This document shows positions 29,663 through 58,319 of a stretch of 64,000 nucleotides of DNA, piece by piece. How positions within the stretch are numbered: the stretch's first letter is position 1; each line of letters begins with the position of its first letter. The notes beneath the pieces are model-generated. The model saw only the letters and a program-made list of their open reading frames with translations. It did no database searches and was not told the DNA's origin. The stretch comes from a bacterium (GTDB lineage: Bacteria; CLD3; SB21), in contig JAEUSK010000248.1 in the NCBI GenBank assembly GCA_016787925.1, forward strand, positions 26,908 to 90,907. The letters run 5' to 3'. Both the position numbers and the translations under genes were made by a program.

Positions 29663-30199
29663 TTATTCCAATTTCTTTAAGTCTTCTTCGATGCGCCGGT
29701 CGACATCGGACGATGGCATCGGGGTTGAATCGTTCTTTGCCGAAGTCGTGTTGACGCGCGTGGCTCTTTTAACTACAACGAAGAGAACCACGGAGAATAG
29801 TGCGAACAGAATGAACGGCAGGACCCATGCCATGAGGTCAAATCCTGTGGTGCCTGGTTGTGACAAAATCACCTTGCCAAAAGGCCCTTTCCCGCGAAAA
29901 GTGTATTCATTCAGGAAATAATCCATTATTTCTGTTCTTGTTTTTTGAGCGAGAATCATCTCCTCGATCTTCTCGCGCATGGGAACAGCCGACGGGCAAT
30001 TAACGTGTCCGCATTGTCCCAGCACGAGATTGCATCCGCATTGACACATAAGTTCTTCGGAAATCTCTGAAAATAAAACGGCCTGCTCGCCGCTGAGTTT
30101 GGACGAATGGGCTGATCCTTGGGCGTAAGTGATTCCAACAAAGCTAACCAGAGCGAAACTGACTAAGAAAATAAGCCATATCCAACTATATTTTTTCAC
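29663..30199 (-). CDS. ccmH: cytochrome c-type biogenesis protein CcmH/NrfF-like
   Basis: The motif ..MCQCGCNLVLGQC..EEMILAQKTRTEIMDYFLNEY resembles the CcmH LRCxxC...GxSxxEIxDxxVxRYG pattern. I chose the GTG at 30199 because it is preceded by AAAGGA and followed by a signal peptide; the ORF track's start at 30298 would overlap ccmF by 113 bp. Confidence 0.65.
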   Translation of the reverse strand: MKKYSWIWLIFLVSFALVSFVGITYAQGSAHSSKLSGEQAVLFSEISEELMCQCGCNLVLGQCGHVNCPSAVPMREKIEEMILAQKTRTEIMDYFLNEYTFRGKGPFGKVILSQPGTTGFDLMAWVLPFILFALFSVVLFVVVKRATRVNTTSAKNDSTPMPSSDVDRRIEEDLKKLE

Positions 30200-32222
30200 C
30201 GATATTTTCCTTTCTGCGAACTTTAACTTCCTTACGGTCTTCCGTATAAGCAGGCAGCAAACAAATGATAGTTCCGAATACCAATATTTCTGTGCCAAAC
30301 CATATCCATGAGACCAGCGGGTTCACATAAATCTGCAGCACGGCTTTTCTCTCAGTTTGATCCAGCCCGGTAAATACCACATACAAATCTTCCTGAATCG
30401 TCTTATACAATGCGACTTCAGTGGTGGGCTGCTGGCTGGCTTTATACATTCGGTATTCCGGTTTTAACTCATGCACTTTGCGTCCGTCTTTGTAAACACC
30501 GAGAACACTGAAAGAAGATTCATAATTAGCGTTCGATTCAAAACCGATCTTGTCGCATTTCAGCGTGTAGTCTTTGACCTGAAATGATTGCCCTTCGCCC
30601 AATTCCGTCTTGGTTTCGAAGTTGAATATGACTCCGGTAATGCCGACGAAAATGATTACCATGGCAAAGTGAACGATATAGCCGCCGTATCGTGGTTTGT
30701 TCTTCCACGTCAAATTTTTAAGCGCGATGAGAAAATTTTCTTTCGTTGAATGCATTCGGGCCGCCGTGCCTTTTACGAATTCAATGACAATAACGGCAGT
30801 AACAAATATGGACAATGTGAATGAAATTAAGCCGTAAAGATGCTGGGTCAGAAAAATAAACACAATGATACCGCCGGCTAATGCGATGAGGCTCGGATAG
30901 AGAAATGCCTTTCTTAAACTTGCCAGCGAAGTTTTTCGCCATGCAAAAAGAGGACCTGCGCCGGTAAGAAAAAGTAAGAATAATGCAATCGGAACATTCA
31001 CCTTATTGAAAAAAGGAGCTCCAACAACAATCTTTTCTCCGGTAACTGCTTCCGAAATCACAGGAAATATGGTTCCCCATAGAACGGCAAAACAGGAAAT
31101 CAATAATACAAGATTGTTGAATAAGAAACTGCTTTCGCGTGACAATGCGGAATCGAGCTTTCCTTCGCTCTTCAGTTGGGGAAGCCTGTATATGACTAAC
31201 GCAACCGAAAACGCAAGGGTAATAATGATGAACGTCATGAAGAATATGCCGATGGATCCTTCGGCAAATGCGTGAACGGACGAGACTACGCCCGATCGTG
31301 TTAAAAAAGTGCCAAAAAGGCAGAGGAGATACGTTGCGATGATCAGCGTTACATTCCAAACCTTGAACATATTCTTCTTTTCCTGGATCATCACGGAGTG
31401 GAGAAAAGCCGTTCCGGTAAGCCACGGCATCAATGATGCGTTTTCAACAGGATCCCAAGCCCAATATCCGCCCCAGCCGAGTTCCTCATAAGCCCACCAT
31501 CCGCCCATCATGATGCCGGCGCTTTGGAACAGCCATGCGAAAAGTGTCCAGCGACGTGACAATTTGATCCATTGGTCATCTAATTGTCCACTCAGTAACG
31601 CGGCAATAGCAAATGCAAACGGAATGACGAATCCGACATATCCAAAAAATAAAGTCGGCGGGTGAATGATCATTGCCGGATGCTGCAGTAAGGGATTCAA
31701 TCCGCGGCCGTCAACTGGAAAAAAGGGCGTAGTCGAGCCGTCACCATGAACGGTTACAAGCTCACTGAATGGATTTGCCGACCACAGGTTGAGCGACAGA
31801 AAAAATATTTGGCTGATCATCGTGGTCATAATGACATAAGGAATCAATTCCCCATGTGTGTTGCGGTACCTATACGTCACGGCAAAACTGTAGCCGGCAA
31901 GCAGCAGGGACCACAAAAGTAATGAACCGGCCTGTCCTGCCCAAAACGTAAATTTAAAAAAGTATGGCAGATCGTGGTTGGTATATGAGGCAACGTATTC
32001 GATATTCATGTTGCTGGTAACCAGCAAATAGATGAGACAGAACGACGCAAACACCACACTTACGAATACCGTATAAACGGAGCGTTGAGCAACGCGGATC
32101 AGATCGCCTCGTTTTTGTCTAATGCCCCACACCGATGTTATCACGGCAAATGCGGCCATTACGATAGCCAAAATGAGGGCGAAATTACCGATGGGCCCGG
32201 CATATCTATCTAGAAATTCCAT
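30186..32222 (-). CDS. ccmF: cytochrome c-type biogenesis protein CcmF/NrfE family (haem lyase)
   Basis: The WWD domain reads WGGYWAWDPVENASLMPWL. The 678-aa product has about 15 TM helices and conserved His residues. Confidence 0.85.
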   Translation of the reverse strand: MEFLDRYAGPIGNFALILAIVMAAFAVITSVWGIRQKRGDLIRVAQRSVYTVFVSVVFASFCLIYLLVTSNMNIEYVASYTNHDLPYFFKFTFWAGQAGSLLLWSLLLAGYSFAVTYRYRNTHGELIPYVIMTTMISQIFFLSLNLWSANPFSELVTVHGDGSTTPFFPVDGRGLNPLLQHPAMIIHPPTLFFGYVGFVIPFAFAIAALLSGQLDDQWIKLSRRWTLFAWLFQSAGIMMGGWWAYEELGWGGYWAWDPVENASLMPWLTGTAFLHSVMIQEKKNMFKVWNVTLIIATYLLCLFGTFLTRSGVVSSVHAFAEGSIGIFFMTFIIITLAFSVALVIYRLPQLKSEGKLDSALSRESSFLFNNLVLLISCFAVLWGTIFPVISEAVTGEKIVVGAPFFNKVNVPIALFLLFLTGAGPLFAWRKTSLASLRKAFLYPSLIALAGGIIVFIFLTQHLYGLISFTLSIFVTAVIVIEFVKGTAARMHSTKENFLIALKNLTWKNKPRYGGYIVHFAMVIIFVGITGVIFNFETKTELGEGQSFQVKDYTLKCDKIGFESNANYESSFSVLGVYKDGRKVHELKPEYRMYKASQQPTTEVALYKTIQEDLYVVFTGLDQTERKAVLQIYVNPLVSWIWFGTEILVFGTIICLLPAYTEDRKEVKVRRKENIGEKI

Positions 32223-34366: not shown

Positions 34367-37180
34367 ATGAAGCTGTTTGATATCTGGCAATTCAGGGTCG
34401 TTGTCGCTGTCTTTGTTATTGTCGCCATAGCGGTTCCGGCTTTGGTTTTCCTGTTGCCCTTTCAATTGCCTGAACCTGCATTATTAAACATCCAATCGCT
34501 GACGGTAAGATTAGTCATATGGCTGATTTGCGTGGCCGCCGGTGTTTTTTTCCTCATAATTAACCTGCAGTCACTCGTCAAGAGACACGAAGTCACAAAA
34601 AAATCACAGCAATTCGACGTCCTTAACGCCGTGCATGAATCCCTTATACGGGAAATCGAACTGGAGAAGGTATTGGAAAAGATTATTGAATTGGCCATCA
34701 CGGCAATACCGGCGGCCGAAAAAGGCTGTGTACTTATTCTGAATGAAGAGAAACGTTATTTAGAAGTAAGGGCTCAAAAGGGATATGATGAACTTCCTGC
34801 AAATTTTCATATCAAACTGGGAGAAGGATATGGGGGAGAAGCTGTATCGCAAGGAAGGAATTTCCTTATTCACGATCTCGATAGGGAGGATGCGCGATTA
34901 CGAACGATCAAGTCGTTTGGTGTAAATAGGCCGCGCATCAAATCCGCAGTGACCACTGTTTTAAAGATGAGAGATAAATGTGTTGGAACGATATCTCTGG
35001 AAAACGGCACAGTCACTCATGCCTTCACAGAACATGATTTGAAACTTCTGGTGTCTCTGGCGTCGCCGGCTTCATTGGCCATCGAGAACGCGATGTTGTA
35101 TGAAAGCGTCCGCAAACATGCCCGTGAACTTGAAATGCTTAACAGGGTTAATTTTGATCTGATCCAATCTCTTGACCTTCAGACGGTTCTGCAAAAGGTT
35201 ATTGATTCAGCTATTACGGCCATTCCAAAAGCAAAGATGGGCACCGTCCTTCTGTTGGATGAAGAAAACAAAAATCTTGTTGTTAAAGCGTTTCGCGGAT
35301 ACGATCCGGAAGTTCTCAAAGGATTCGTTTTGCCTGTGGGTAAAGGCTTTTCAGGCGTAGCAGTATCCCAAAGAAAAAGTTTTATTATTTCTGATTTGAG
35401 TTTGCCCTTATACAAGAAATTTTGGCTTAAGGACGAACAATCTGCGCCGATGAAAATAAGGTCGGCGATGACGGCGGTATTGATGGTCAAAGATAAATTG
35501 ATCGGTACGATTTCTCTTGAGAATCCGCATGAAGCGGATGTCTTTAAAGAGAACGATCTTAAAATTCTTACATCATTTGCTTCGCAGGCCGCGATGGCCA
35601 TTGAAAACGCTAAATTCTATGAGACCCTGGAAAGGGAAGTCGAACAGCGAACGTCCAAACTTCGTGAAATGAACATGAAAATTGTCGAGGCCGATCGTCT
35701 AAAATCGGAATTTCTTGCCAATATGAGTCACGAACTCCGTACTCCGCTGAATGCAATCATCGGCTTTTCAGAATTATTACTTGATGAAGCACAAGAGGAA
35801 GAGATCAAAAACAAACGCGAATGTCTTATTGACATATACCAAAGCGGAAGACATTTGCTTCAGCTGATCAATGACATTCTTGATCTCTCAAAAATCGAAG
35901 CGGGCAAAATGGAACTCCATCTTGAAAATTTTATTATTACGGATCTTATGTATTCAGTTCAAAGAACGGTTGCGCCTTTACTCGACAAGAAAGCGCAAAA
36001 ATTGAAAATCGAGATACCGAAGAACTTCCCTGTGGTATTTGCCGATCCCAAGAAAATAAGGCAAGTGATGTTGAACTTGGTAAGTAATGCCATTAAGTTT
36101 TCGCCCAATCAAACTGAGATTTGCGTGACGTCATCCTATCATGAGGAAAATAAAGGCAATGCGTTTGAAATTACCGTGGCCGATCACGGCCGCGGCATTC
36201 GTGAAGAAGACCAGAAGATTATTTTTGACGAATTTCGTCAGGTCGATGGAAGCACAACGCGAGAAGATCAGGGCACAGGCCTCGGCCTCGCACTTTGCCG
36301 CAGACTCGTCGAAATGCACGGCGGCAGGATATGGGTCGACAGCATTTACGGACAAGGAAGCACTTTCAAAGTTCGCATTCCGCAGAGTCAATCAAAAATG
36401 GAAGAAGTCATTGGAGATCTTAGTCAGGAACGTGCGTATTCCAGCGATTTCATTCTGGTCGTTGAAGACGACCTTCAATCAGCAAATTTGATGAAACGGT
36501 TCTTAGAACTCGAAGGGTATCGCGTGGTGAATGTTCGGAACGGCAATGAAGTCCTGGCCGAAGCAAAAAAGATAAGGCCGCTGGCCATCACACTAGACAT
36601 TATGCTTCCCGGAAAAGACGGTTGGGACGTTTTACAGGAATTGAAGTCCGACAGTGTTACACAGTCTATTCCCGTATTTATCGTATCTGTAATGGACAAG
36701 AAAGACAAAGCGTATGGTCTGCACGCCGATGATTATTTTGTCAAGCCGCTGAATCGCATTCAGATTCTAGACCGAATCGGAGCATTGAAGAAACGTAACG
36801 GAGCTAAAAATCAGATCGACCGCATTTTGGTTGTGGACGATGATGATAACGCACTTTTCTTGACAACCTCTTTCCTGCAGAAAGAGGGGTTTGAAGTCAT
36901 GAATGCCCGGGACGGACGAAAGGCGCTTGATATGATCCGGATGGACAGGCCGGATCTGGTCATTCTCGATCTCCTGATGCCGAATATGAGCGGCTTTGAA
37001 ATGATGGAGATCATGCGTCATGAAAACGAGCTTAAAAACATCCCTGTGATAGTGCTGACAGCGAAGGAATTAACTCCGGAAGACCGTGCGCATATGAGCG
37101 GTCAGGTTAAGAAATTTATGCAGAAATCATCTTACAGTATTCACGACCTTCTGTATGAAATTAAGAGAGTGGTGGGTTAA
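34367..37180 (+). CDS. hybrid sensor histidine kinase: 2 TM, GAF, GAF, HisKA, HATPase_c, REC, REC
   Basis: The H-box is FLANMSHELRTPLNAI, the G-box is DHGRGI...GTGLGLALC, and two receivers carry the phospho-acceptor Asp (ITLDIMLPGKDG and LVILDLLMPNMSG). Confidence 0.85.
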   Translation: MKLFDIWQFRVVVAVFVIVAIAVPALVFLLPFQLPEPALLNIQSLTVRLVIWLICVAAGVFFLIINLQSLVKRHEVTKKSQQFDVLNAVHESLIREIELEKVLEKIIELAITAIPAAEKGCVLILNEEKRYLEVRAQKGYDELPANFHIKLGEGYGGEAVSQGRNFLIHDLDREDARLRTIKSFGVNRPRIKSAVTTVLKMRDKCVGTISLENGTVTHAFTEHDLKLLVSLASPASLAIENAMLYESVRKHARELEMLNRVNFDLIQSLDLQTVLQKVIDSAITAIPKAKMGTVLLLDEENKNLVVKAFRGYDPEVLKGFVLPVGKGFSGVAVSQRKSFIISDLSLPLYKKFWLKDEQSAPMKIRSAMTAVLMVKDKLIGTISLENPHEADVFKENDLKILTSFASQAAMAIENAKFYETLEREVEQRTSKLREMNMKIVEADRLKSEFLANMSHELRTPLNAIIGFSELLLDEAQEEEIKNKRECLIDIYQSGRHLLQLINDILDLSKIEAGKMELHLENFIITDLMYSVQRTVAPLLDKKAQKLKIEIPKNFPVVFADPKKIRQVMLNLVSNAIKFSPNQTEICVTSSYHEENKGNAFEITVADHGRGIREEDQKIIFDEFRQVDGSTTREDQGTGLGLALCRRLVEMHGGRIWVDSIYGQGSTFKVRIPQSQSKMEEVIGDLSQERAYSSDFILVVEDDLQSANLMKRFLELEGYRVVNVRNGNEVLAEAKKIRPLAITLDIMLPGKDGWDVLQELKSDSVTQSIPVFIVSVMDKKDKAYGLHADDYFVKPLNRIQILDRIGALKKRNGAKNQIDRILVVDDDDNALFLTTSFLQKEGFEVMNARDGRKALDMIRMDRPDLVILDLLMPNMSGFEMMEIMRHENELKNIPVIVLTAKELTPEDRAHMSGQVKKFMQKSSYSIHDLLYEIKRVVG

Positions 37181-37181
37181 T

Positions 37182-40100
37182 ATGAAACTGACCATGCAAA
37201 AAGGGCTGATCCGCTTGATCTTACCGGTTATTGTAATCCTCGGATTGGAATCGGCATGCACGGCCCAGGAACTTGAAATCGACTTTGAGAGAATAACGAT
37301 TGAACAGGGACTATCACAAAGCAGTATCAACTGTATAATTCAGGACAGTCGCGGTTTCATGTGGTTCGGCACGCAGGACGGATTGAACCGATATGACGGA
37401 TATGATTTCATGGTGTATAAACGCAGTTCTGTAGACACATTTACTTTATCAAGCAACTGGATTACTTCGTTGTTTGAAGATGTGTCCGGTTCGATATGGA
37501 TAGGCACTCAGGGCGGCGGCCTAAATAAATTTGACCGGTTTACAGAAAAATTTGTTTCCTATATGCACGATCCAAACGACTTGTCCAGTCTAATAAGTAA
37601 TGACGTGCGTTCGGTGCACGAAGATAAAAGCGGAACATTTTGGATCGGCACCGGGAGCGGCGTCTGTACTTTTGACCGCAGAACAGGTAAATTTCAACGT
37701 CTGACTAACGGCAATGGCATTGAGAAAGCATACGTTTCCGCGATATTTGAGGACCGGATCGGACAAATATGGTTTGGCACACAGGGGTCCGGTTTGTATA
37801 AACTGACTAAACAAAAGAATCGCACAACTGTTGTGCATTATACGCATCTGCCGGATTTTGCAAATAGCCTGAGTAACGATTTTGTTAACGCAATATATCA
37901 GGACAACAACAAGACCATTTGGGTCGGTACAGCTGGCGGGCTCAATAAACTACTTTCCGAAGAGACCGGCAGTTTTATTTCATTTAAGAAGAACGACAAA
38001 AACCCTGCAAGCCTTTCTTTTGATCGTGTTCAGACCATTTTTGAAGATCGTCTAGGGATGCTCTGGATAGGCACGGACGGCGGCGGACTCAATTGTTTTG
38101 ATCCGCGTGATCCCACGCGGACTAAGTTCGTTAGTTACACGCAAGACCCGATTAACCTCCGGAGTCTCAGCGAAAATCGTGTCTTCTCTTTGCTTGAAGA
38201 CAAGTCAGGAACCCTGTGGATCGGGACGGGCGGAGGGTTGAGTAAGTTCGACCGAAAGCCCAAGAAATTTGCACATTTTAAAACAGAGCCATACAACCCC
38301 AACAGCCTTAACGTGAGCGAAGTGTGGTGTTTTTACGAAGACAGTGAGGGCATTCTTTGGATAGGCACTAATGGCGGCGGATTAAATCGTTTCGACAGGA
38401 GGACCAATACATTTTCATTTTATCGAAACGAAATAAAGAATGGCCTGAGTCTGAGTGAAGATCGCGTATGGTCAATTCTGCAGGACGATGGCGGAGCGCT
38501 TTGGATAGGCACCAATGGCGGCGGACTGAATAAAATGAATATTGGTGCGGAATCATTTACGCGATACCGTAATGATGCGGCGAATCCAAAAAGCCTCAGC
38601 GATAACCGCGTCAAAGCCTTACTGAAGAGCCGTGACGGTAATATTTGGATCGGCACCCGCGCAGGCGGGCTTAATAAGCTCGATCCGGTATCGGAAACGT
38701 TTGAATCCTATGTGAACGATCCCCTTGATCCCAATAGTCTCAGCAGTAATAATATCTACTCGCTCTATGAAGACCGCGATGACGTATTATGGATAGGAAC
38801 GTTTGGAGGCGGCCTTAATAAATTTGACCGACGAACAGGAAAATTTACGGTATACAGAAACAATCCTAAAGACCCAAGTTCGATCAGTTCAAATGGCATC
38901 CTAAGTATGTGTGAAGATACGAACGGAAATTTTTGGATTGGAACTCAGAACGGCGGGCTGAACAGATTGGACCGGGAGAAAGGTACATTTACAAATTATT
39001 CCCGTGAAGCCGGATTACCCAACGAAGTCGTGTACGCCGTACTCGAGGATAATCAGGGTTATCTTTGGATCAGTACTAATAAAGGGTTATCCCGGATCCG
39101 ATATGACCAGGCCACGGGCAATATGGAAATTCGCAATTACGATCAGCATGATGGTTTGCAGAGCGACGAATTTAACGGCGGCTCTTATTATAAGAATCAC
39201 AAAGGCGAATTGTTCTTTGGAGGAGTAAACGGATTTAATGTATTTCTTCCCGAGGAAGTGAAAGATAATTCGCATGTTTCTCCCGTCGTTCTGACCGCCT
39301 TCAAAAAGTTTGATCGTATTCAGAAACTTGAAACATCCGTTTCTGAGATCAAAGAAATTAAGTTGTCGTACAGGGAAAACGTTTTTTCATTTGAATTTGC
39401 TGCGCTTGATTTTACCAGGCCGGAGAAAAATCAATACGCCTATAAAATGGACGGCTTCGACATTGACTGGATTTACTGCGGTTCGCGGCGTTATGCGAGC
39501 TATACCAATCTGGACGGCGGGACGTACACTTTTAGAGTCAAAGGCACGAATAACGACGGGCTATGGAATGAAGCCGGAGCTGCCGTCACGATTATTATCA
39601 CGCCGGCATTTTGGAATACATGGTGGTTCAGGCTATTGGTCGTATTGTTGGTCGGTTGGGCCGCAGTAGGGTATTACCGTTCGAGGGTAACTGCCGTTCA
39701 AAAGCAAAATGAGATTCTCGAAACAAAAGTAGAGGAACGTACGAAGTCACTTCGCGAAATGAACTCTAAAATCATAGAAACGGACAGGCTGAAGTCAGAA
39801 TTTCTCGCGAATATGAGTCACGAGCTGCGTACACCGCTGAATGCGATCATCGGTTTTTCTGAATTGCTTCAGGATGAAATGAAAGAAAGCGCGACGCCGG
39901 ATCAAATGCAGAGTTTACAGGACATTCACCACAGCGGGAAACACCTTTTACAGCTGATTAATGATATTCTGGACCTGTCAAAGATCGAGGCGGGTAAAAT
40001 GGAACTAAATCAGGAGCATTTTGAGGTGCGGCAATTGCTGGAATTGATCAGACGTACTGTCACGCCGTTATTGGACAAGAAGAGCCAGTTACTGGAAATA

Positions 40101-41270
40101 CGGATCGATGGGGAAATGAAAATTTTTGCCGATCCGAATAAGATTAAACAAGTTATAATCAATTTACTGAGTAATGCGATTAAGTTTTCTTCGCCGGGTA
40201 CCGTGATCGGCATTGAATCCGCTATGCTGCACAACAACCAGCCGCCCATTTTTCAATTGGCCGTGAAGGATAATGGCCGTGGTATTCCGAAGGAATTTCA
40301 CAATGTAATTTTCGACGAATTCCGTCAGGTGGACGGCAGCAGTACACGGGAAGATCAAGGCACAGGACTTGGTCTTGCATTGTGCCGCCGATTGATCGAA
40401 ATGCACGGCGGAAAAATATGGGTTGAGAGTGAATTGAATAAAGGTAGCAAGTTTATTTTCGTGATCCCGCAGAGCCCCGATGGCGAAGAGGCTCATAGCA
40501 AACAAGTGGTTGACGATGGGATTGTAATTGACAACAATTTTATACTGATTATCGAAGACGACGTGCAGTCAGCGAATCTCATCAAACGATTTCTGGAGCT
40601 GGAAAATTACAGAACGATTCACATTAGTAATGGAGCTGACGCGCTTGTCGAAGCCCGAAAGATAAGGCCATTGGCCATTACGCTTGATATCATGCTCCCG
40701 GGAAAAGACGGGTGGGAAGTATTACAGGAATTAAAATCCGATCCCGTGACTCGAGTAATTCCTGTCTTTATTGTGTCCGTAACTGAAAATAAGGACCTTG
40801 CATACAGCCTGCATGCGGATGATTATTTTATTAAACCGCTAGATCGCGACTTGCTGATCGAGAAAATCAATAAACTTAAAAAGTCAAAAAAGAGAAAGAA
40901 AAACGTTTCACAGATATTAGTTGTGGACGATGATGAAAAGGCGCTAACATTGACAGGGACGTTTCTTGAGAAAAAAGGTTTCGACGTTGACAGAGCAAGA
41001 GACGGCGTGGAAGCTCTGCGGAAGATTAAGAACAGTAAGCCCGATCTTCTGATCCTGGATCTGATGATGCCACAGATGAGCGGGTTCGAAGTAGTGGACG
41101 TGATGCGGCAGGATCCCAACCTGAAAGAAATTCCGATCATTATCCTCACCGCTAAAGAACTGACGAAGAAAGAAAAAGATACTCTCAGCGGACAAGTCCG
41201 CTGCCTCATGCAGAAAGCATCTTACAGCACCGACGATCTTTTGTACGAAATAAAACGTGTAATCGGGTAG
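37182..41270 (+). CDS. hybrid sensor histidine kinase: signal peptide, about 13 two-component-regulator propeller repeats, Y_Y_Y domain, TM, HisKA, HATPase_c, REC, REC
   Basis: The repeats are W(I/F)GTxxGGLN(K/R)FD units. A Y_Y_Y-like region ([14 protein letters not shown]) is followed by a TM helix. The kinase-REC-REC module is paralogous to the upstream gene. I used the ATG 1 nt after the upstream stop; the ORF track's start at 37155 overlaps it. Confidence 0.85.
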   Translation: [1362 protein letters not shown]

Positions 41271-44727: not shown

Positions 44728-45099
44728 ATGGCTAAAATCTATGTGATAGAGGATGAGCCAAGCTTAAGACTTTTGTATCGAACTGAATTGGAAGGGATGG
44801 GTCATAATGTGACCTGTTTGTCCAATGGGCGGGAAGCGATATCTAGACTGAAAGAGGATCAGCCCGATCTGATCGTGTTGGATATCATGATGCCCGAGGG
44901 TGATGGTATGGAGTTTTTGACAAAGATGCTGGATCATCGTATGGATATTCCTGTGATTATTAATTCTGCTTATTCACACTACAAGAATGATTTCATGAGT
45001 TGGGCGGCGGAGGCGTATGTGGTAAAATCGTCCGATATGACGGAATTGAAATCAGAAATTCACAAAGTTCTTGACAAGAGTCAGATGGCCACGGTCTAG
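44728..45099 (+). CDS. stand-alone response regulator receiver domain protein
   Basis: The receiver motifs are IYVIEDEPSL...LIVLDIMMPEGDG...YVVKS. Confidence 0.75.
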   Translation: MAKIYVIEDEPSLRLLYRTELEGMGHNVTCLSNGREAISRLKEDQPDLIVLDIMMPEGDGMEFLTKMLDHRMDIPVIINSAYSHYKNDFMSWAAEAYVVKSSDMTELKSEIHKVLDKSQMATV

Positions 45100-46244: not shown

Positions 46245-46697
46245 GTGAAAAGCTTCGTGGTTGTTTTATTCGTTTTTTTGAGTTCTCATCTGTTTGCGCA
46301 GGAGAAACATACGATCACAGCAGGCAATGAGCGGATTGAAATCAAATGTACTCCAGTTGGCACCGGTGGATTCTCCAAAGAAGGAGAAATCAGCGGAACG
46401 GTTCCCATCCGAATTGTTTTCAAGAAGAACGATAAGAGCGACGTTGATATGTTTGGCAAAGTTGTTCGCTGGAGTTATAAAAGATCGGAACAAGGCGACG
46501 ACGTTGCGGATATCTACATTGATGGGAATAACTGGTGGTCCACGCGATGTATTTTCTTTATAACGACCTACGTCAACGCGCAGAGCATCAACTACGACGG
46601 TGAAAAAATTCGAATAGGGCAGGGAGTTGACTTTCTGCAGAGATTAGGCGTGCCATTTAGCGTTTCGAGCAGCACGTCCGGCAACGCGGCTAATTAA
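46245..46697 (+). CDS. hypothetical secreted protein
   Basis: The GTG start follows AGGAGG. The signal peptide is VKSFVVVLFVFLSSHLFAQ. Confidence 0.45.
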   Translation: MKSFVVVLFVFLSSHLFAQEKHTITAGNERIEIKCTPVGTGGFSKEGEISGTVPIRIVFKKNDKSDVDMFGKVVRWSYKRSEQGDDVADIYIDGNNWWSTRCIFFITTYVNAQSINYDGEKIRIGQGVDFLQRLGVPFSVSSSTSGNAAN

Positions 46698-46727: not shown

Positions 46728-46753
46728 AAAGTCCCGTTTACGGGACTTTTTTA
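46728..46753. terminator. bidirectional rho-independent terminator between convergent genes
   Basis: aaagtcccgt-tt(a)-acgggacttttttat. The hairpin abuts the stop codon of the minus-strand rhodanese gene. Confidence 0.65.
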
Positions 46754-47263
46754 TTTCTTAGGATTGTAAACTTTGTTGCCTCGTTGCAGCCATTTCCCCC
46801 AGAAGCCATTGTACGGATGGACATCTGCCGTTTCAGTTTCTTCCCGAAAAACCGGGTATGCTTGATTAACCCATTCAAATATGCCGCCAAAAAGATTTTG
46901 CACTTTGTGATATCCCAAAGTTGTTAGTCGTTCTGCAATGACTGAGCTTCTATAACCGACCGAGCAATACGTAATGATGCGAGATGATTTGGGAATATCA
47001 TGCATCTTGGCTAATTCAAATGTGTCAAAATCCATCCACCGGGCGCCTTGAATGTGACTTACCAAATATTCGCTCTCAGAGCGCGTGTCAAGAACTATGA
47101 CGGAATCGGATATCAGAAGCTTTGATAAAGAATCAGCTGAAATATGATCGACATTGAACTTTTCATACAACGCATTAAGGAAAACACGGTATTCGGTATC
47201 TTGCGCATGAAGCATAACGCTGAGGAAACACGCCATGATGCATGACTTGAGAATGGATTTCAT
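46751..47263 (-). CDS. rhodanese-like sulfurtransferase domain protein, secreted
   Basis: The catalytic Cys loop is ITYCSVGYRSS. I used the internal Met MKSILKSCIMACFLSVMLHAQ as a signal-peptide start. Confidence 0.7.
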   Translation of the reverse strand: MKSILKSCIMACFLSVMLHAQDTEYRVFLNALYEKFNVDHISADSLSKLLISDSVIVLDTRSESEYLVSHIQGARWMDFDTFELAKMHDIPKSSRIITYCSVGYRSSVIAERLTTLGYHKVQNLFGGIFEWVNQAYPVFREETETADVHPYNGFWGKWLQRGNKVYNPKK

Positions 47264-47513
47264 TTCAATGATTCGAAAGAATTGGGAAAAGCGGAACATG
47301 AACCAAAATTATTTACATGTTAATGCGGGCCGGCTCAAAACACAAGTAAATCTTAAGTGAATTTCGTAACGTCATGAAGCCCGGAGTACACTCAGTCGGA
47401 TATTTTGTGCTTGAGTTCGTTCGACGATTCATGTATTTTAAAAAGGAATATATTCTTGCATGTCGTCGTTGTATACTCATTCACTCTTGTCACATTCCAT
47501 TGCTAAATTTGTT

Positions 47514-48272
47514 ATGCAAAAAATTGTTTTTTGCGGAAGGTTAGTTCTAATTCTCGCGTTTTTTTCCGGCTGCGATAAGGAGAAGGTTAGCGAAGACGCT
47601 CAGATCACGCTTGGCCGGGAATTATTTCATGACACGCGGTTCTCCTCTTCTGGCGAGCAGAGTTGCGCAACTTGCCATCCCGACGGCCACACAGATAATC
47701 GAAAATGGCATTTCCCTGCAATTCACGACTCATCCAGCGGCAAGCCCGATTCGTTAAAAACACTTACGCTCTGGGGTATTGCGCAAACGGGGCCGCCGTA
47801 TTTATGGTCGGGAAGAACGACAGGACTTTACGAAATTACGAAACTTTACACAGATACGATAATGGGCGGCCTGGCGAGCCATGAGGAACTTGAAGCTTTG
47901 GTGGCGTATCAGAAATCTTTAGTTGCTCCTTCAAATCCTTGGATTCGGAACGACGGCGAACTGACGATGGAACAACAAAGAGGAAAAAAAATTTATGAAA
48001 CAAAGGGTTTCTGTTCTCCGTGCCATCCCGCTCCAACGGGCACCAATGGTTTTGTCAAGGATATCGGTACCGGCGGTTTTTTCAAAACGCCAAGTCTTAT
48101 TGCAATGTATTCTAAATCGGATTTTTTTCATGATGGCCGAGCTAAGACGCTACGCGATGTTATTCATTTTTATATTGCCGATCCGGAGAATAAGCTGCGG
48201 GACCATGATTTCATAATTAATTTAAGTGATCAAGAAATTAGTGACCTAATCGAATATTTGAAATCATTCTAA
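47514..48272 (+). CDS. di-haem c-type cytochrome, cytochrome c peroxidase (CCP/MauG)-like, lipoprotein
   Basis: The lipobox is FFSGCDKEK. There are two CxxCH motifs (SCATCHP and CSPCHP). The N-terminal LGRELFHDTRFSSSG...CATCH pattern is CCP-like, but the 252-aa product is shorter than canonical CCPs. Confidence 0.7.
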   Translation: MQKIVFCGRLVLILAFFSGCDKEKVSEDAQITLGRELFHDTRFSSSGEQSCATCHPDGHTDNRKWHFPAIHDSSSGKPDSLKTLTLWGIAQTGPPYLWSGRTTGLYEITKLYTDTIMGGLASHEELEALVAYQKSLVAPSNPWIRNDGELTMEQQRGKKIYETKGFCSPCHPAPTGTNGFVKDIGTGGFFKTPSLIAMYSKSDFFHDGRAKTLRDVIHFYIADPENKLRDHDFIINLSDQEISDLIEYLKSF

Positions 48273-48278
48273 GATAAA

Positions 48279-49064
48279 ATGAGTATGAAACACATAATGT
48301 ACAAGTTAATGATCGGAACGGTCTTAGTTGCTTCCCTTTGTTGTGTTGCATGTGACAAAGAGAAACCAGGTGAAGACCCGCAAATTGCTTTTGGGAGACA
48401 GTTATTCAACGATACCAAGTTTGACAATATTGCCGGTCAAACTTATAGCTGTGCAACTTGCCATCCGGGTGGCGATATGGATCATAAAAAATGGTTATTG
48501 CCGCCTTTATCCACAGATTCAGTTGCCACGCCGACGTTATTTGGGGTTAGCGATACACCTCCTTATTTGTGGTTTGGTGAAGGAGGAAGTGATATTAAGG
48601 CCGTTACGCGCGTAGTCATAGACAGCGTTTTGCATGGCTCCGCGACGGAGGAAGAACTGGACGCACTTGCCGCCTATCAGCTGTCGCTGATTGTACCGGC
48701 GAATCCATGGAGAAATTCCGACGGCTCGCTGACAATGCAACAGCAGAAAGGAAAGGCGGTTTTTGAAGGGCAGGGCAAATGCGGTGTCTGTCATTCAGGG
48801 GAAGCGCTTACGGGAAAGTTTAAAATTCAAATTAAAAAATTGAATCCGCAAGTCGACGTGCCTTCGCTTCGCTGGGTATTTGCCACGGCGCCATATTTCA
48901 GAGATCATTCTGCGGCCACATTGTGGAAAGTTGTTAGTCATTACGCGGATTCGGTTCAGACTGGACAAATGACAACATGGGGATGGAATACACTGGGAAT
49001 TTACGATATTAGTCTAACTGAACAGGAAAAGACTGATTTAATCGAATATTTAAAAACGTTATAG
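48279..49064 (+). CDS. di-haem c-type cytochrome, CCP-like lipoprotein (tandem paralog)
   Basis: The lipobox is LCCVACDKEK. The two haem-binding motifs are CATCHP and CGVCHS. FGRQLFNDTKF is shared with the upstream paralog. The gap to that paralog is 6 bp. Confidence 0.7.
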   Translation: MSMKHIMYKLMIGTVLVASLCCVACDKEKPGEDPQIAFGRQLFNDTKFDNIAGQTYSCATCHPGGDMDHKKWLLPPLSTDSVATPTLFGVSDTPPYLWFGEGGSDIKAVTRVVIDSVLHGSATEEELDALAAYQLSLIVPANPWRNSDGSLTMQQQKGKAVFEGQGKCGVCHSGEALTGKFKIQIKKLNPQVDVPSLRWVFATAPYFRDHSAATLWKVVSHYADSVQTGQMTTWGWNTLGIYDISLTEQEKTDLIEYLKTL

Positions 49065-49096
49065 TATTAAACGTGCCATACATCAGGATTCGCACT

Positions 49097-50320
49097 ATGA
49101 AAAAGACATTGACAGGCCTTCTTTTGATATTAACCTTAGCGCCATGCGAAAGTTTGTGGGCGCAAGAGGAGTCTTTGCCGGATGAGTTTGGTGAAATGAC
49201 GGAGACGTCGGACAACACTACCGGCATTGGCGGTATTGTTGATGCGGCCACTACTTTCGGAAATAAGCCACATCTTAACGCCAATACGCTGAATGATAAC
49301 AATTTTAATAATATCCGCGCGCTCTTGAATTTTCGATTTCAGCACAAAGAAAAATTACGGGCGGATGTAGAAGTTTTGTTTGACGATGCTTCGAAAGAAA
49401 AGGTTCGACTTCAGGGCGCCTTCATTACCATCTTTGATGTGCCGAACGAGAAAATTAATTTTATGGTTGGGAAAATACCCAATCTTTTCGGAAATTTTGG
49501 TAAACGTGAATTCTCAGACGTCAACCCTCTGATCGGTCAGCCGCTCATGCGTCAATATCGAACCAGTCTGGACTGGAATAATCTGTGGAATAATCAAGAA
49601 CAACTCATTTTAAAGGAAAAAAGGAAAGCACATAAAGGGAACTTACCCGTTGATGTATTAGCCGGGGCAACGCCAACCGTTTACGACGCACGTTGGGATT
49701 TTGGTATAGAGTTATTTGGAAATATTTCGTTTGTGGACTATCAAATAGCCGTCACTGAAGGGTCCATTTCAAATCCTGATGCGAACCAAAACAAGGGAAA
49801 GCAATTCTTAGGTCGTTTAGGTTTTGCACCCGTTGCGGGATTAAAGTTTGGTTTTTCGGGCGCAAGCAATCCTTATTTGTCAGGCGCCGATCCTCAAAGG
49901 CTGCTGGAAGAGGGCAAAGGAAAGGGCGAATATCGGCAAATGGCTTATGGGGCGGACTTGGAGGCTAGTTACCGTTATCTAATCGTTTTCAGTGAGTTCG
50001 TTAAAAGCACCTGGGATGCGTCGGTGGATGAGGGGGAATTATCCAATTGGAGTTGGTATGTGGATGCTAAATATAAGCTGCATCCCAAACTCTACGTCGC
50101 AGCGCGGTATGATATGATGAATTTCAGCAAGATCAAAGATCCTGCGACGGCCTCAAATGAATCCTGGGATTTTGACGTGAAACGATATGAAGTTGGGTTG
50201 GGATTTAGAATTACTGCTGACGCAACGCTTAAGTTAGTCGAGCAGTGGACTGTTTTTGATGAAAAGTCTAATATTAAGAGCGTACGGTTCACAGCAGCAC
50301 AATTGTCTGTTCCATTTTAA
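49097..50320 (+). CDS. putative outer-membrane porin-like beta-barrel protein
   Basis: The signal peptide is MKKTLTGLLLILTLAPCESLWAQ. The sequence has alternating amphipathic strands and ends in AAQLSVPF, with the terminal Phe typical of outer-membrane proteins. Confidence 0.5.
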   Translation: MKKTLTGLLLILTLAPCESLWAQEESLPDEFGEMTETSDNTTGIGGIVDAATTFGNKPHLNANTLNDNNFNNIRALLNFRFQHKEKLRADVEVLFDDASKEKVRLQGAFITIFDVPNEKINFMVGKIPNLFGNFGKREFSDVNPLIGQPLMRQYRTSLDWNNLWNNQEQLILKEKRKAHKGNLPVDVLAGATPTVYDARWDFGIELFGNISFVDYQIAVTEGSISNPDANQNKGKQFLGRLGFAPVAGLKFGFSGASNPYLSGADPQRLLEEGKGKGEYRQMAYGADLEASYRYLIVFSEFVKSTWDASVDEGELSNWSWYVDAKYKLHPKLYVAARYDMMNFSKIKDPATASNESWDFDVKRYEVGLGFRITADATLKLVEQWTVFDEKSNIKSVRFTAAQLSVPF

Positions 50321-50348
50321 CTGATTGAGATTTCGGAGGAATAAAAAT

Positions 50349-51089
50349 ATGAAAATTGTAATTTTGGTATTTGGTTTTGCAACGGCGCTTATTTTTACGC
50401 TTCTGGGCGAGGACGTCAAGTTCTTTCAAATCATGTCGGATGCCGGTTTGGTTAAATACTCTGAATCGGAATCCATTGAAAACCGGGCAGCTTTGCCTGC
50501 GGAAGGAAAAATCACCGGGAAAGTGTTTGTCAGCAAGTCCGGAGGGACTGCGGCCAGGTCTGCCAAGGGATTATATGGAAAAAGTTCCTCGCGGTTGACT
50601 AAGAGCGCCGGTATCGATCAGAGAGCCATTGTCTTTATCGTGAAAGCGCCCGGCAAATATCCGCTACCGCAAAGCAGGCCGGTGATGCGCCAGAAAAACA
50701 TAGCCATTGTGCCGCATGTTTTGCCTGTTTTACTTGGTACGACCGTTGACTTTCCGAACGAAGATGAGATTTATCACAATATTTTTTCACTTTCAGATAC
50801 TAAAACTTTTGACCTCGGCCGGTATTCCAAAGGAAAATCGAAATCGGTGACGTTTAACACATTAGGTACGGTCAAGGTTTTCTGCGATATTCATTCCCAG
50901 ATGGGCGGAGTTATTCTGGTGCTGCAAAATCCGTATTTTACCACTGTCGGCATTGACGGCAGCTATAGTATCAGCGGTGTTCCTCCGGGAAATTATGAAG
51001 TTGCCGCATGGCAGGAAAACGGGGGAAGCAAAATTCAAAAAATAACCGTTAGGAGCGGGGAACAGGTTGATCTTGATTTTTCATTCTGA
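50349..51089 (+). CDS. carboxypeptidase-regulatory-like (CarboxypepD_reg) domain protein, TM-anchored
   Basis: GGAGGA lies upstream. The N-terminus has a TM helix. The C-terminus GSYSISGVPPGNYEVAAWQENG is the typical Cna-B/CarboxypepD_reg motif. Confidence 0.5.
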   Translation: MKIVILVFGFATALIFTLLGEDVKFFQIMSDAGLVKYSESESIENRAALPAEGKITGKVFVSKSGGTAARSAKGLYGKSSSRLTKSAGIDQRAIVFIVKAPGKYPLPQSRPVMRQKNIAIVPHVLPVLLGTTVDFPNEDEIYHNIFSLSDTKTFDLGRYSKGKSKSVTFNTLGTVKVFCDIHSQMGGVILVLQNPYFTTVGIDGSYSISGVPPGNYEVAAWQENGGSKIQKITVRSGEQVDLDFSF

Positions 51090-51116
51090 CCATCTATATT
51101 CAAATATTATTGAGTT

Positions 51117-51148
51117 TAAGTCCCGTAAGGCATTACGGGACTTTTTTG
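51117..51148 (+). terminator. rho-independent terminator
   Basis: taagtcccgtaa-ggcat-tacgggactttttt. The stem sequence is nearly identical to that of the terminator at 46728. Confidence 0.7.
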
Positions 51149-51245
51149 TTAGTGCGTGCATAAAATCTTGCATGGCGCATTTTTAATTTGTAAATTGACC
51201 ACCGAAAAAAATCTGAACTAACGTTAATTTTAAAGAGGTATTTTC

Positions 51246-51761
51246 ATGAGAAAGCAATGGATTCTTTTATGTGCTTTATCGTTTCTCATTATGTGCGGGG
51301 CAGGTTGCGGCAAGAAAGAAACCGTTGACGAGTACTTTGCGCAGGCGGATAGTCTACGCGTGAAAGGAAAATTGACCGAAGCCGTCAAAAAACTAAGCGA
51401 AATTGCAGAGAAATTTCCGACGGACACTCTGAACGCAATTAAATCTCTGACGGTAATGGCCGACATTTACGGAGCCGATCTTAGGGATTTTACTAAGGCA
51501 ATTGAGATCCATAAGAAAATAATCGATTTGTATCCGGATTATCCGGTGACGGCAAAAAGTTTTATCATTATTGCAGTCACTTATGAAAACGAAATTAAAG
51601 ATATAGAAAAGGCGCGTCAAGCGTATGAGCAATTCCTGGAAAAATATCCGACTCATGAATTGGTACCGGGTGTCAAGGGCGCGCTGGACTTGCTCGGCGT
51701 TAGCGACGAAGATTTAGAAAAGATGATACTGGAAAAAAACAAGAGTATCCCCTTGAAGTAA
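51246..51761 (+). CDS. TPR-like repeat lipoprotein
   Basis: The lipobox is LIMCGAGCGKKE. A helical repeat segment reads AYEQFLEKYPTHELV. Confidence 0.55.
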   Translation: MRKQWILLCALSFLIMCGAGCGKKETVDEYFAQADSLRVKGKLTEAVKKLSEIAEKFPTDTLNAIKSLTVMADIYGADLRDFTKAIEIHKKIIDLYPDYPVTAKSFIIIAVTYENEIKDIEKARQAYEQFLEKYPTHELVPGVKGALDLLGVSDEDLEKMILEKNKSIPLK

Positions 51762-56453: not shown

Positions 56454-58319
56454 ATGATGGTTTTCAAGGAAATAGAGCTATTCAACATTCGCCAATTTGA
56501 ACACAGACTTATGAATTTCAAAACAGGATTCAATCTGATCGCAATGGGTCCTGCACAAGGGAAGTCCACTTTGACTGAGTCATTACGAACGGCTTTGTCA
56601 ATTTCAGAGCTAAACCCGCCTGATTATTTCAGAGAAGGAACATCCGATTCTGCAGTCAGGTTAGTAGCAGTAATTAATCACAAAGAATATTCTATCCGGA
56701 AAGAATGGACAGGGCAGAGAGTGAACCATCATACCGTCAGATCGGAAGACGGGAAACTGGCGTTTGACCTGACTGATTCGGCTCAAGTAATGAGGTGGTT
56801 ACTTCATTTTCTGAAACTTGCAGATAAAATGTTTGATGAAAGTATGGAAACCATGCCGGTGAATTTATTATCTCAGCGTTATCATACTATTTGTGGGATT
56901 ATGTTCCCGGATAATCATGATGAGAGCGCTTCACATTCTATCAGGCTTCACACTCTCCTGAATATTCATTTATACGATCATATCAATTTAGAATTGAATA
57001 ATATCCGCCAGATTGCTTCGGATTCGCTAAACGAATTTAAAATGAAAAGACAGGCGGCCATAATTGATCGGAAAATCGTCGAACGATTCGAAGAAGACCT
57101 CAGACAAACGGATAATCAAATCAAACAGCTTCTCGCGGTTATTGATCAAGTGTCGGCCAGTATACAGGCGGATGAGGCAGACCTTCGGCAGGCTGATAAG
57201 ATATACGAATTTATTGTGGCGAAGAAACATGAAATCGAAAAGATCGATTTTGAGTTGCGCAGCTACAATTCAATATTGAAAAATGATATAGGCCACGAAT
57301 TTACTGATGATGAAATTCGGGAAATTGAAAAGAAAAAGAAAATGTATGAACAAATATCATTACGGGAAGAGTCCCTCCACAAGAAAATTGTTGAGCGGGG
57401 GCACCTGGAACGGAATTTGAACGGCATTCTCAAAGAAATTAGTCAATATCAAATTTCTCAGACGGCATCGGATACCGGAGTCGGCAAAACAAAGTTGGAT
57501 GCATACACGTCAGAAGTAAATAGAATTCGCGAAACGCTTAAATCCTATTCAAGTCTTGATCAGGACATGGAGGCTGCCAAGCGCGACAAAAACCTGTATC
57601 AATCATCTCATGACAAACATCTCGTAATCGGCAAACTCAAACAATTCGTGTCGCAAAACGAACAAAAGAAGGTCAAATCTCTGATTGAAAAACTCGAACA
57701 GGATCGTGACATTATCGTCAAAGAACTTGAGCAAATGCAATCGACGGTGCATGAAGATCGTTATCGGGATCTTTTTAGCAAAGTCCAGCAGTTCAGACAG
57801 CAGATAGTTGAACTGCAGAAGCGAATTGAACTTTTATACGATAAGAGATTGGAAACATTGCGAAACTTCGAAGAAAACCTCAGCGCCGAACCGGATCTTA
57901 TGGCCATGGAAAGCAAGTTCCGTCGACAGGTTCATCTGAAAAAATATCTCTCGGTGATAACCGAAGTCGCGCAGTTTCTTCAGGAGGATTTGCGGGCATC
58001 ACGTCGCGCGGAATTTCGACAGCATATTCTCAGACACGGTCCCATATTACCTGACTTTTTTGTTCAGCTGGTTGAGTATGTTCTTCAGTTTCAGGACAAG
58101 AGTTTTCTCCAAGCGCAATTTAAACGTTATTCGCATTCACAGATTGCCGAATTTAATTTGATCTTCCGTTTGCTCTGCATTGATTATGCAACGCACCATT
58201 CCGAAGCCGTATTAGATGAACACTATCGTTGGCTATTGGACCCGGTGCAAATGTCGAGAATTGACACGGTGCTTCAACATTTAAATTTCGGACAGTGCAT
58301 TGCTTTTGATAAAGCCTAA
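56454..58319 (+). CDS. SMC/RecN/SbcC-like ABC-type ATPase with long coiled coil and degenerate C-terminal motifs
   Basis: The N-terminal head FKEIELFNIRQFEHRLMNFKTGFNLIAMGPAQGKSTL carries a Walker A and SMC_N beta-strands (VRLVAVINHKEYSIRKEW). The central ~350 aa are charged heptad-rich coiled coil. The C-terminus AVLDE..LLDPV is Walker B/D-loop-like, but no clear LSGGQ signature is present. Confidence 0.55.
   Translation: MMVFKEIELFNIRQFEHRLMNFKTGFNLIAMGPAQGKSTLTESLRTALSISELNPPDYFREGTSDSAVRLVAVINHKEYSIRKEWTGQRVNHHTVRSEDGKLAFDLTDSAQVMRWLLHFLKLADKMFDESMETMPVNLLSQRYHTICGIMFPDNHDESASHSIRLHTLLNIHLYDHINLELNNIRQIASDSLNEFKMKRQAAIIDRKIVERFEEDLRQTDNQIKQLLAVIDQVSASIQADEADLRQADKIYEFIVAKKHEIEKIDFELRSYNSILKNDIGHEFTDDEIREIEKKKKMYEQISLREESLHKKIVERGHLERNLNGILKEISQYQISQTASDTGVGKTKLDAYTSEVNRIRETLKSYSSLDQDMEAAKRDKNLYQSSHDKHLVIGKLKQFVSQNEQKKVKSLIEKLEQDRDIIVKELEQMQSTVHEDRYRDLFSKVQQFRQQIVELQKRIELLYDKRLETLRNFEENLSAEPDLMAMESKFRRQVHLKKYLSVITEVAQFLQEDLRASRRAEFRQHILRHGPILPDFFVQLVEYVLQFQDKSFLQAQFKRYSHSQIAEFNLIFRLLCIDYATHHSEAVLDEHYRWLLDPVQMSRIDTVLQHLNFGQCIAFDKA

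Follow-up and report, generated by a model that had tools for sequence, protein, structure and literature searches.

Di-haem cytochromes c of the cytochrome c peroxidase (CCP)/MauG superfamily have several described copper-protein partners in the cell envelope. Cupredoxins are established donors of di-haem peroxidases (pseudoazurin, azurin and Laz all donate to CCP), and the partner CCPs of Laz and pseudoazurin are canonical His/Met-ligated enzymes whose genes are not known to be operonic with a porin gene. In the MbnH-MbnP-MbnT and MopE/CorA systems, a MauG-type di-haem gene stands beside genes for an envelope protein that binds copper and for a channel in the outer membrane. Haem ligation separates the MauG-type proteins, which are His/Tyr-ligated, show bis-Fe(IV) chemistry and are poor peroxidases, from the His/Met-ligated canonical bacterial CCPs (bCcPs) (PMC11892367). 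Here we describe an operon in a 64,000-nucleotide stretch (hereafter the window) of contig JAEUSK010000248.1, from an uncultured, Bacteroidota-related bacterium (GTDB lineage CLD3; SB21), which encodes two tandem di-haem lipoproteins (CytA and CytB), a porin-like outer-membrane protein (OMP) and an exported protein, P4, predicted to be a type-1 blue copper protein. An earlier interpretation made from the DNA letters (the sequence-only reading) had proposed a periplasmic/outer-membrane redox module matching no named operon. Such a module is still the best reading, and literature searches retrieved no description of this gene combination or of the porin/P4/kinase triad considered below. We tentatively favour, at somewhat less than an even chance, a periplasmic/outer-membrane electron-transfer unit working between blue copper and MauG-type haems.

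CytA and CytB share with MauG, MbnH and BthA two c-type haems, the CCP_MauG fold, a predicted Tyr at the axial position of the second haem and an inter-haem Trp. In contrast to these enzymes, they are lipoproteins, are about 80-120 aa shorter, lack the distal Gln...Pro...Glu-Met segment and a further segment of 17 columns, and score 46-62 bits against model cutoffs of 363-444; in addition, family scans of the seven neighbouring proteins revealed no dedicated substrate such as MbnP or the methylamine dehydrogenase precursor (pre-MADH). As with Neisseria Laz and its lipoprotein CCP, or Paracoccus pseudoazurin and CCP, a periplasmic blue copper protein would be paired with a di-haem peroxidase fold, and the Neisseria components are likewise lipid-anchored; the cupredoxin of the window, however, is fused into an immunoglobulin (Ig)-like domain. 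The sequence-only reading had also appealed to the logic of MbnH and MbnP. CytA and CytB have the MauG/MbnH-type Tyr and Trp, whereas MbnP and a TonB-dependent transporter were not detected and the MbnH scores are far below the cutoff. Moreover, the partner is predicted to be a canonical type-1 cupredoxin, the channel is a passive porin instead of a TonB-dependent transporter, and the window operon gives no evidence of kynurenine chemistry.

Structure and conservation of the four-gene operon

The genes cytA, cytB, OMP and P4 constitute one operon (Table 1). The gene lengths, the spacings of 6, 32 and 28 bp, the lipoboxes, the two CxxCH motifs in each cytochrome and their LGRxLFxDTxF...CATCH pattern, all given by the sequence-only reading, were confirmed in the table of open reading frames (ORFs), and the terminator it had called strong has a folding free energy (dG) of -19.3 kcal/mol (z = -3.8 against shuffled sequences). 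The start of cytA was placed at the ATG that agrees with the starts of its orthologues; the longest ORF would begin at 47460.

Every full-length orthologous locus keeps the order cytA-cytB-OMP-P4; the orthologues are 50-94% identical and lie on independent contigs and metagenome-assembled genomes. In locus L006 the upstream context is different and the four-gene cluster is still intact, while L012, of the same lineage, has a cytB-type gene only and a changed upstream context too. Footprinting showed a single conserved block upstream of cytA, GATATTTTGTGCTTGAGTT, which is common to the window, L010 and L001 and partly to L014. It resembles the Bacteroidota -7 element, TAnnTTTG, from which one base is missing, and is a weak candidate promoter. 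No operator palindrome was found upstream of cytA by footprinting, and since Rfam and tRNA scans of the window returned zero matches, the 214-nt leader appears to contain no riboswitch.

P4 is a predicted type-1 blue copper protein

The product of the fourth gene had been described in the sequence-only reading as a CarboxypepD_reg-like protein. Its Ig-like domain is indeed present (Pfam CarboxypepD_reg match at residues 195-245), but P4 also carries what appears to be a complete type-1 copper cupredoxin domain, a redox partner that had been overlooked. The cupredoxin beta-sandwich fold was found in P4, and its sequence matches in the PDB are the cupredoxin domains of NirK, amicyanin and plastocyanin. 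The putative ligands His143, Cys179, His182 and Met185, with the spacing C-x2-H-x2-M as in amicyanin, are invariant in 21 diverse sequences of 39-81% identity, and the homologues from Burkholderia and Sinorhizobium retain the type-1 ligands as well. Membership in the type-1 copper proteins rests on fold and ligands, because the Pfam Copper-bind match (residues 121-189; 18.3 bits) is just below the gathering score of 21.2. Because a confident N-terminal strand (GKITGKV, residues 53-60) is part of the Ig-like domain, the cupredoxin domain is regarded as an insertion. Amicyanin and plastocyanin possess the same His/Cys/His/Met set, with the loop length shared by amicyanin; unlike them, P4 has this domain inserted in a CarboxypepD_reg/transthyretin-like domain, and its gene is coupled to those of a porin and a sensor and not to a dehydrogenase or photosystem. 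At residues ~72-84, in a disordered loop of low predicted confidence (low pLDDT, residues 65-88), there is a motif K-G-x-Y-G-K-x-x-S-R-L, which is confined to the P4 proteins of the lineage carrying the di-haem cytochromes.

CytA and CytB form a short branch of the CCP/MauG superfamily

The haem motifs are CATCH (C51xxCH55) and CSPCH (C167xxCH171) in CytA and CATCH and CGVCH in CytB, where the haem, Trp and Tyr positions correspond to those of CytA (Trp98 and Tyr220). Both proteins begin with a lipobox Cys and the LGRxLFxDTxF...CATCH pattern, and both match Pfam CCP_MauG (PF03150; CytA 66.6 bits, CytB 27.4 bits, gathering score 25.6). With 40% identity to each other the tandem copies have diverged, as had been stated, and the cytB-type gene is always the copy adjoining the porin gene. 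Solved CCPs and MauG span 308-373 aa, so that CytA and CytB are about 80 aa short, again in keeping with the first description. CytA has 23 orthologue clusters and the two paralogues together about 28 (at 90% identity), beyond which the scores fall from 179 to 106 bits. Across this family the two CxxCH motifs are invariant with the exception of one cluster (P0028), and no Cys is invariant other than that of the lipobox and the four that bind haem.

The family profile aligns with full-length MauG/MbnH-like relatives at an hhalign probability of 100% (E = 1e-45). In this alignment the inter-haem Trp is retained, the invariant Trp98 falling on the Trp of FWDGR, and the invariant Tyr220 falls on the Tyr of the 'FY' of MauG-type proteins. 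The same column holds Tyr in MbnH 6e1c (VIDIY) and Met in the Shewanella CCP 3o5c; thus the His/Met ligation of canonical bCcPs was not found, Tyr220 standing at the Met position. These correspondences point to a MauG-type Tyr as axial ligand of the second haem, together with the inter-haem Trp, in CytA and CytB. In the hhalign comparison a 25-column gap covers the distal Gln...Pro-x-Glu-Met segment after FWDGR, with a variable hydrophobic residue facing the Gln column, and a second deletion of 17 columns lies just before FKTPSL; the distal catalytic segment of canonical bCcPs was accordingly not found in either protein. The Asn of the Ca site aligns with an invariant Thr or with a residue adjacent to it.

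Among solved structures, the hydrazine synthase (HZS) gamma subunit 5c2v_C is the closest in sequence (E = 9e-18 with CytA and 4.5e-27 with the family profile), and MbnH, CCPs and MauG come next. As in HZS-gamma, the stretch from the Trp position to the linker helix is shortened. HZS-gamma has a three-thioether haem (PMC12607021), which must be absent from CytA and CytB because they have no third conserved Cys, a Lys facing the Cys of 5c2v_C. They also differ from the gamma subunit in having a Tyr where it has none, in the lack of propeller, alpha or beta subunit genes in their loci, and in their host, which is not an anammox bacterium. The scores lie far below all equivalog cutoffs, with 68.6 bits against 625 for HZS-gamma (NCBIfam), 57.7 and 45.9 against 443.85 for MauG (TIGR03791), and 56.4 and 62.0 against 362.85 for MbnH (TIGR04039). 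CytA and CytB are therefore a distinct short branch of the CCP/MauG superfamily, being neither housekeeping CCPs nor MauG, MbnH or HZS-gamma. The sequence-only reading had named against itself the case of housekeeping CCPs with unconserved neighbours; Tyr in place of Met, the low scores and the conserved neighbourhood all speak against that case.

Distant metagenome relatives (26-35% identity) are mostly the C-terminal domain of ~640-aa ORFs. Neither the porin nor P4 occurs in any of 80 such loci, and the Trp and Tyr positions lack conservation, so these relatives do not inform the function. The closest database relatives match the propeller-bearing HZS-BC fusion model weakly, at about 100 bits against a cutoff of 1250. 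On many metagenome contigs of high GC content (57-70%; loci L094-L169, e.g. L094, 4576-6654), ORFs of ~630-690 aa end in a short di-haem CCP-like domain. Two ORFs of ~985 aa (L120, 3757-6705; L121, 3733-6696) carry 10 CxxCH motifs with the same short di-haem domain at the end and appear to be multihaem fusions.

The porin-P4 pair and its sensor neighbour

A signal peptide, a beta-barrel fold and a C-terminal Phe were found in the OMP, as in 16-stranded porins, and the barrel ending in F noted from the sequence is the terminus LSVPF. The barrel is OprP-like, with ~400 aa and 16 strands by size and fold, and its most conserved stretch is a low-confidence loop (residues 121-160). There is no CxxCH motif in the 407-aa protein, and no plug or TonB-dependent-receptor family was detected at the locus, where the channel is porin-like. 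The porin family comprises 898 cluster representatives at E <= 1e-3.

P4 has at least 580 confirmed loci in species-representative genomes, and those listed span Acidobacteriota (mostly Vicinamibacterales), Bacteroidota, Ignavibacteriota, Gemmatimonadota, Planctomycetia and Gammaproteobacteria. Neighbourhoods were counted in the best 80 of the at least 580 loci. A porin homologue is present on the same strand in 77 of the 80, in several phyla and in variable gene order, and directly adjoins P4, on either side, in 69; di-haem genes occur only in the loci of the window's lineage. Hence, the porin and P4 form an old and widespread two-gene module, to which CytA and CytB are a lineage-specific addition.

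Outside this lineage the pair has another companion. Of the 51 loci with full flanks, 49 have a histidine kinase gene on the strand of P4 and no more than 4.5 kb away from it, and NtrC-type sigma-54 regulators are frequent near the pair. In loci where another gene parts P4 from the porin, this gene encodes a kinase of the architecture dCache_3-HAMP-HisKA-HATPase. The closest outgroup (L076) has the order porin-P4-kinase with overlapping genes, and in L008 as in L076 the P4 and receptor genes overlap or stand a few bp apart. By contrast, a kinase or GGDEF/EAL gene was found in 0 of 8 genome loci of the window's lineage, where CytA and CytB occupy the place that the sensor gene has in other phyla. 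The porin/P4/kinase triad is seen in L018-L089, in variable order (e.g. L007, 5775-10900; L076, 4747-8416; L020, 6001-9500), and is distributed over Acidobacteriota, Bacteroidota, Ignavibacteriota, Gemmatimonadota and some Gammaproteobacteria.

In Alpha- and Betaproteobacteria, the gene of a ~780-aa EAL-domain protein begins 2-12 bp after the P4-like gene, and the Burkholderia version has the architecture dCache_3-HAMP-GGDEF-EAL. P4 thus tracks a periplasmic sensor whichever its output, kinase activity elsewhere and cyclic di-GMP turnover in these Proteobacteria. PLSDB plasmids of Burkholderia, Caballeronia, Comamonas and Novosphingobium encode P4-like proteins annotated as 'methylamine utilization protein' or 'carboxypeptidase regulatory-like'. 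The P4-like genes of these plasmids usually lie beside DUF3034 and a truncated haemoglobin, or beside DUF4394 (L170, 4730-8943; L174, 3578-7881; L173, 3363-7860; L172, 3952-7906), and the truncated haemoglobin of Caballeronia has a signal peptide. On pSymA of S. meliloti the neighbouring genes encode a SCO protein, a metallophosphoesterase and a cytochrome c of SoxA/TsdA-like type. P4-like genes therefore recur beside periplasmic haem proteins, namely the truncated haemoglobin in Burkholderiaceae and Novosphingobium and the SoxA/TsdA-like cytochrome c in S. meliloti. DUF3034 was considered as a homologue of the window porin and rejected (hhalign probability 0.8%).

The genes upstream of the pair in other phyla include no recurrent partner beyond synteny within orders, according to Pfam counts (e.g. 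Oxidored_q6/Fer4 in 8 of 128 ORFs). Apparent kinase-porin 'fusions' of ~1000 aa contain an internal signal peptide and were read as merged gene calls. P0287, P0305, P0309 and P0318 (560-1020 aa), in which a kinase is joined to a porin around a mid-protein signal peptide, are most likely of this kind; they again place the kinase and porin genes next to each other.

Proposed function of the operon

Gene structure, cofactor motifs, folds and the conserved neighbourhood are observed here; electron transfer between P4 and the cytochromes, the nature of the oxidant and the part played by the porin are inferred. According to the favoured electron-transfer reading, a small diffusible oxidant, with H2O2 as the default of the superfamily, would enter the periplasm, possibly through the dedicated porin, and would react at the five-coordinate N-terminal haem of CytA or CytB. 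The His/Tyr-ligated second haem and the inter-haem Trp could then relay the oxidising equivalents, and P4 would serve as the one-electron partner, either reducing the haems again or becoming oxidised by them. A periplasmic receptor, either a histidine kinase or a GGDEF-EAL protein, is apparently coupled to the state of P4 in most other bacteria, whereas in the lineage of the window the output is more likely to be catalytic, as oxidant consumption or electron delivery. Several observations weigh against this reading. Simple detoxification of H2O2 is doubtful, since enzymes of the MauG type perform poorly as peroxidases (PMC11892367) and CytA and CytB have lost the canonical distal Gln/Glu segment. 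The substrate could instead be NO, hydroxylamine (cf. HZS-gamma) or a protein side chain, and the HZS-gamma-like pocket keeps NO and hydroxylamine in play as reactants. The porin-P4 pair is without any cytochrome in nearly all other lineages, and its constant sensor-protein partner there points to signalling and not to catalysis. Because the four-gene form is restricted to a single lineage, of which one genome (L012) has a single cytochrome, its conservation partly reflects shared ancestry. Finally, CytA and CytB may face the cell surface: after the lipidated Cys both share a tether, C-D-K-E-K-x-x-E-D (47571-47585 and 48354-48368), that partly resembles the surface-lipoprotein export signal of Bacteroidota, C-X-K-(D/E)2-X (PMC5080379).

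The sensor genes beside P4 suggest a different output. A rather unlikely reading makes the porin and P4 the periplasmic input of a signalling pathway in which the haem proteins react with the ligand, the receptor being encoded elsewhere in this lineage; and it is similarly unlikely that the cytochromes turn a signal (an oxidant, NO or O2) into a redox state of P4. The kinase within 4.5 kb in 49 of 51 loci, its position between P4 and the porin where these are separated, the EAL-protein gene at 2-12 bp in Alpha- and Betaproteobacteria and the overlapping or closely spaced P4 and receptor genes of L008 and L076 all agree with a sensory module. Moreover, the strict sigma-54 promoter pattern was matched ahead of the pair in none of 69 loci and not in the window either, so the pair is not obviously a regulated target. 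On the other hand, none of the eight genome loci from the lineage of the window has a kinase or GGDEF/EAL gene, no type-1 copper protein is known to act as a sensor, and the operon of a regulated, substrate-specific porin would equally adjoin a two-component system. The H-NOX and NosP proteins, which are accessory sensors for adjacent kinases and cyclases, offer a likeness in that a small cofactor protein is encoded beside a receptor whose output varies between kinases and cyclic di-GMP enzymes; however, they are cytoplasmic haem proteins, whereas P4 is exported, would bind copper and has a putative link to signalling, through its gene neighbourhood only. On a broader view, we consider it possible, though still on the unlikely side, that the porin and P4 are the input device of an unrecognised, widespread periplasmic signalling system, with P4 as a redox, oxidant or copper co-sensor for dCache_3-type receptors. 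At the same doubtful level, these receptors would be either GGDEF-EAL proteins or histidine kinases, the kinases often accompanied by an NtrC-type regulator; periplasmic haem proteins would serve some lineages as an added front end, Burkholderiaceae using a truncated haemoglobin and the lineage of the window MauG-type di-haems; and the window would represent a variant whose receptor has been uncoupled from, or replaced by, haem proteins. The closest regulatory parallel is found in Myxococcus, where the copper-responsive kinase and sigma-54 regulator CorSR are encoded in an operon with a cupredoxin-domain protein (PMC3707914). A CorSR-style copper homeostasis of the porin/P4/kinase triad is only a possibility, since neither the porin nor P4 contains Met/His-rich tracts.

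Two further readings, maturation of the MbnH/MbnP type and an extracellular conduit, are weaker. CytA and CytB might use H2O2 to reach a bis-Fe(IV) state and oxidise a residue of P4 or the porin, a proposal we regard as improbable; no more probable is a product in the form of a cofactor or extra copper site, comparable to the action of MbnH on MbnP and of MauG on methylamine dehydrogenase. The MauG operon does hold a cupredoxin, amicyanin, with the same C-x2-H-x2-M loop, and the loop motif K-G-x-Y-G-K-x-x-S-R-L is found only in the P4 of the cytochrome-bearing lineage; the Tyr at the ligand position of the E haem and the conserved inter-haem Trp also fit this chemistry (PMC11892367). However, the putative copper site of P4 already has the full canonical type-1 form, P4 operates in hundreds of other genomes that have no such enzyme, homologues of MbnP, MopE or pre-MADH were absent from the family scans of the seven neighbouring proteins, the distal-pocket segment of MauG is deleted, and the scores come nowhere near the cutoffs for MauG and MbnH. 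Even less probable is extracellular electron exchange or metal redox, in which surface di-haem lipoproteins would swap electrons with periplasmic P4 at the porin, and we give equally little weight to the idea that the operon is a small analogue of porin-cytochrome conduits or the Cyc2-rusticyanin pathway. A barrel, cytochromes and a cupredoxin recall the rus pathway of Acidithiobacillus, but the barrel of the window has no haem motif, and at 16 strands and ~400 aa it is too narrow to sheathe a cupredoxin or di-haem domain, in contrast to Cyc2 with its barrel-fused haem motif and to the MtrAB porin-cytochrome conduits with at least 20 strands around a multihaem protein. No multihaem partner is encoded in the operon. 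The conserved C-D-K-E-K tether is partly like the signal C-X-K-(D/E)2-X (PMC5080379) and fails its minimal form, having a single acidic residue after the Lys. Finally, ordinary peroxidases might merely lie beside an unrelated porin and Ig-domain protein, as could be argued from the restriction of the four-gene arrangement to one lineage in which pyruvate kinase and Der are syntenic as well. This is highly improbable in view of the tight spacings and single terminator, the persistence of the cluster in L006 and, with its one cytochrome, L012 despite a changed upstream context, the non-canonical haem ligation, and a neighbour, P4, that is predicted to be a redox protein and not a plain Ig domain. 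The catalytic and signalling readings share a core step, haem-copper electron transfer in the periplasm, and differ in its output.

Genes and elements around the operon

The sequence-only reading had counted the TPR lipoprotein as part of the module. This gene lies beyond the terminator, and its homologues are restricted to loci of the window's own lineage (11 loci), in which pyruvate kinase and Der are also syntenic; its TIGR03302 score is 45.2 against a cutoff of 81.4. It most likely represents lineage synteny unrelated to the module.

The terminator hairpin after P4 and another after an upstream gene for a 150-aa protein have nearly the same stem (AAGTCCCGT...ACGGGACTT) and may belong to a repeated terminator or repetitive extragenic palindromic (REP)-like element. 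The 150-aa protein, which has a signal peptide and no family match, is encoded at the same position in L001-L005 (146-149 aa) and is absent from L006. Between its gene and cytA lies a rhodanese-domain gene, at whose position L001 has a 52-aa ORF alone. A CcmF gene in the window fits an organism that makes c-type cytochromes. Two consecutive large hybrid histidine kinases and a stand-alone receiver are also encoded in the window, and no recognisable dCache_3 domain was found in any of the three.

Table 1. Positions of the operon, its elements and other features in the window
Feature	Position	Strand	Description
cytA	47514-48272	+	252 aa lipoprotein; short MauG-type di-haem cytochrome c
cytB	48279-49064	+	261 aa lipoprotein; paralogue of cytA
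OMP	49097-50320	+	407 aa porin-like beta-barrel
P4	50349-51089	+	246 aa exported protein; predicted type-1 blue copper protein
P4 cupredoxin domain	P4 residues ~110-192		inserted in CarboxypepD_reg/transthyretin-like Ig domain (strand 53-60 and residues 195-246)
Candidate promoter element GATATTTTGTGCTTGAGTT	47399-47417	+	~100 nt 5' of cytA
Intrinsic terminator	51118-51149 (hairpin 51118-51143)	+	11-bp stem, 5 G-C pairs, T-run; closes the four-gene operon
TPR lipoprotein	51246-51761	+	171 aa, weakly BamD/YbgF-like
150-aa protein gene	46245-46697	+	signal peptide
Upstream hairpin	46728-46749		follows the 150-aa protein gene
Rhodanese-domain gene	46751-47299	-	NF045521 'rhoda_near_glyco', 163 bits
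Stand-alone receiver gene	44728-45099
Two hybrid histidine kinases	34367-41270	+	GAF-HisKA-HATPase-REC and Reg_prop/Y_Y_Y-HisKA-HATPase-REC
CcmF gene	30186-32222	-	system I cytochrome c maturation
1192-aa ORF	22435-26013	+	no Pfam match at E <= 1e-5
621-aa ORF	56454-58319	+	no Pfam match at E <= 1e-5

Implications

The components of the operon come from known superfamilies, and P4 as a class of blue-copper co-sensor is the more novel possibility. If the assignments hold, CytA and CytB would represent a new short CCP/MauG branch that combines MauG-type Tyr ligation with an HZS-gamma-like active-site region, which would be relevant to high-valent haem chemistry. Likewise, blue copper proteins would stand behind the annotations 'carboxypeptidase regulatory-like' and 'methylamine utilization protein', and P4-like genes are carried by culturable bacteria, namely Caballeronia, Burkholderia, Novosphingobium and S. 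meliloti. A porin/blue-copper/sensor triad would then exist in hundreds of soil and water bacteria, including Proteobacteria.

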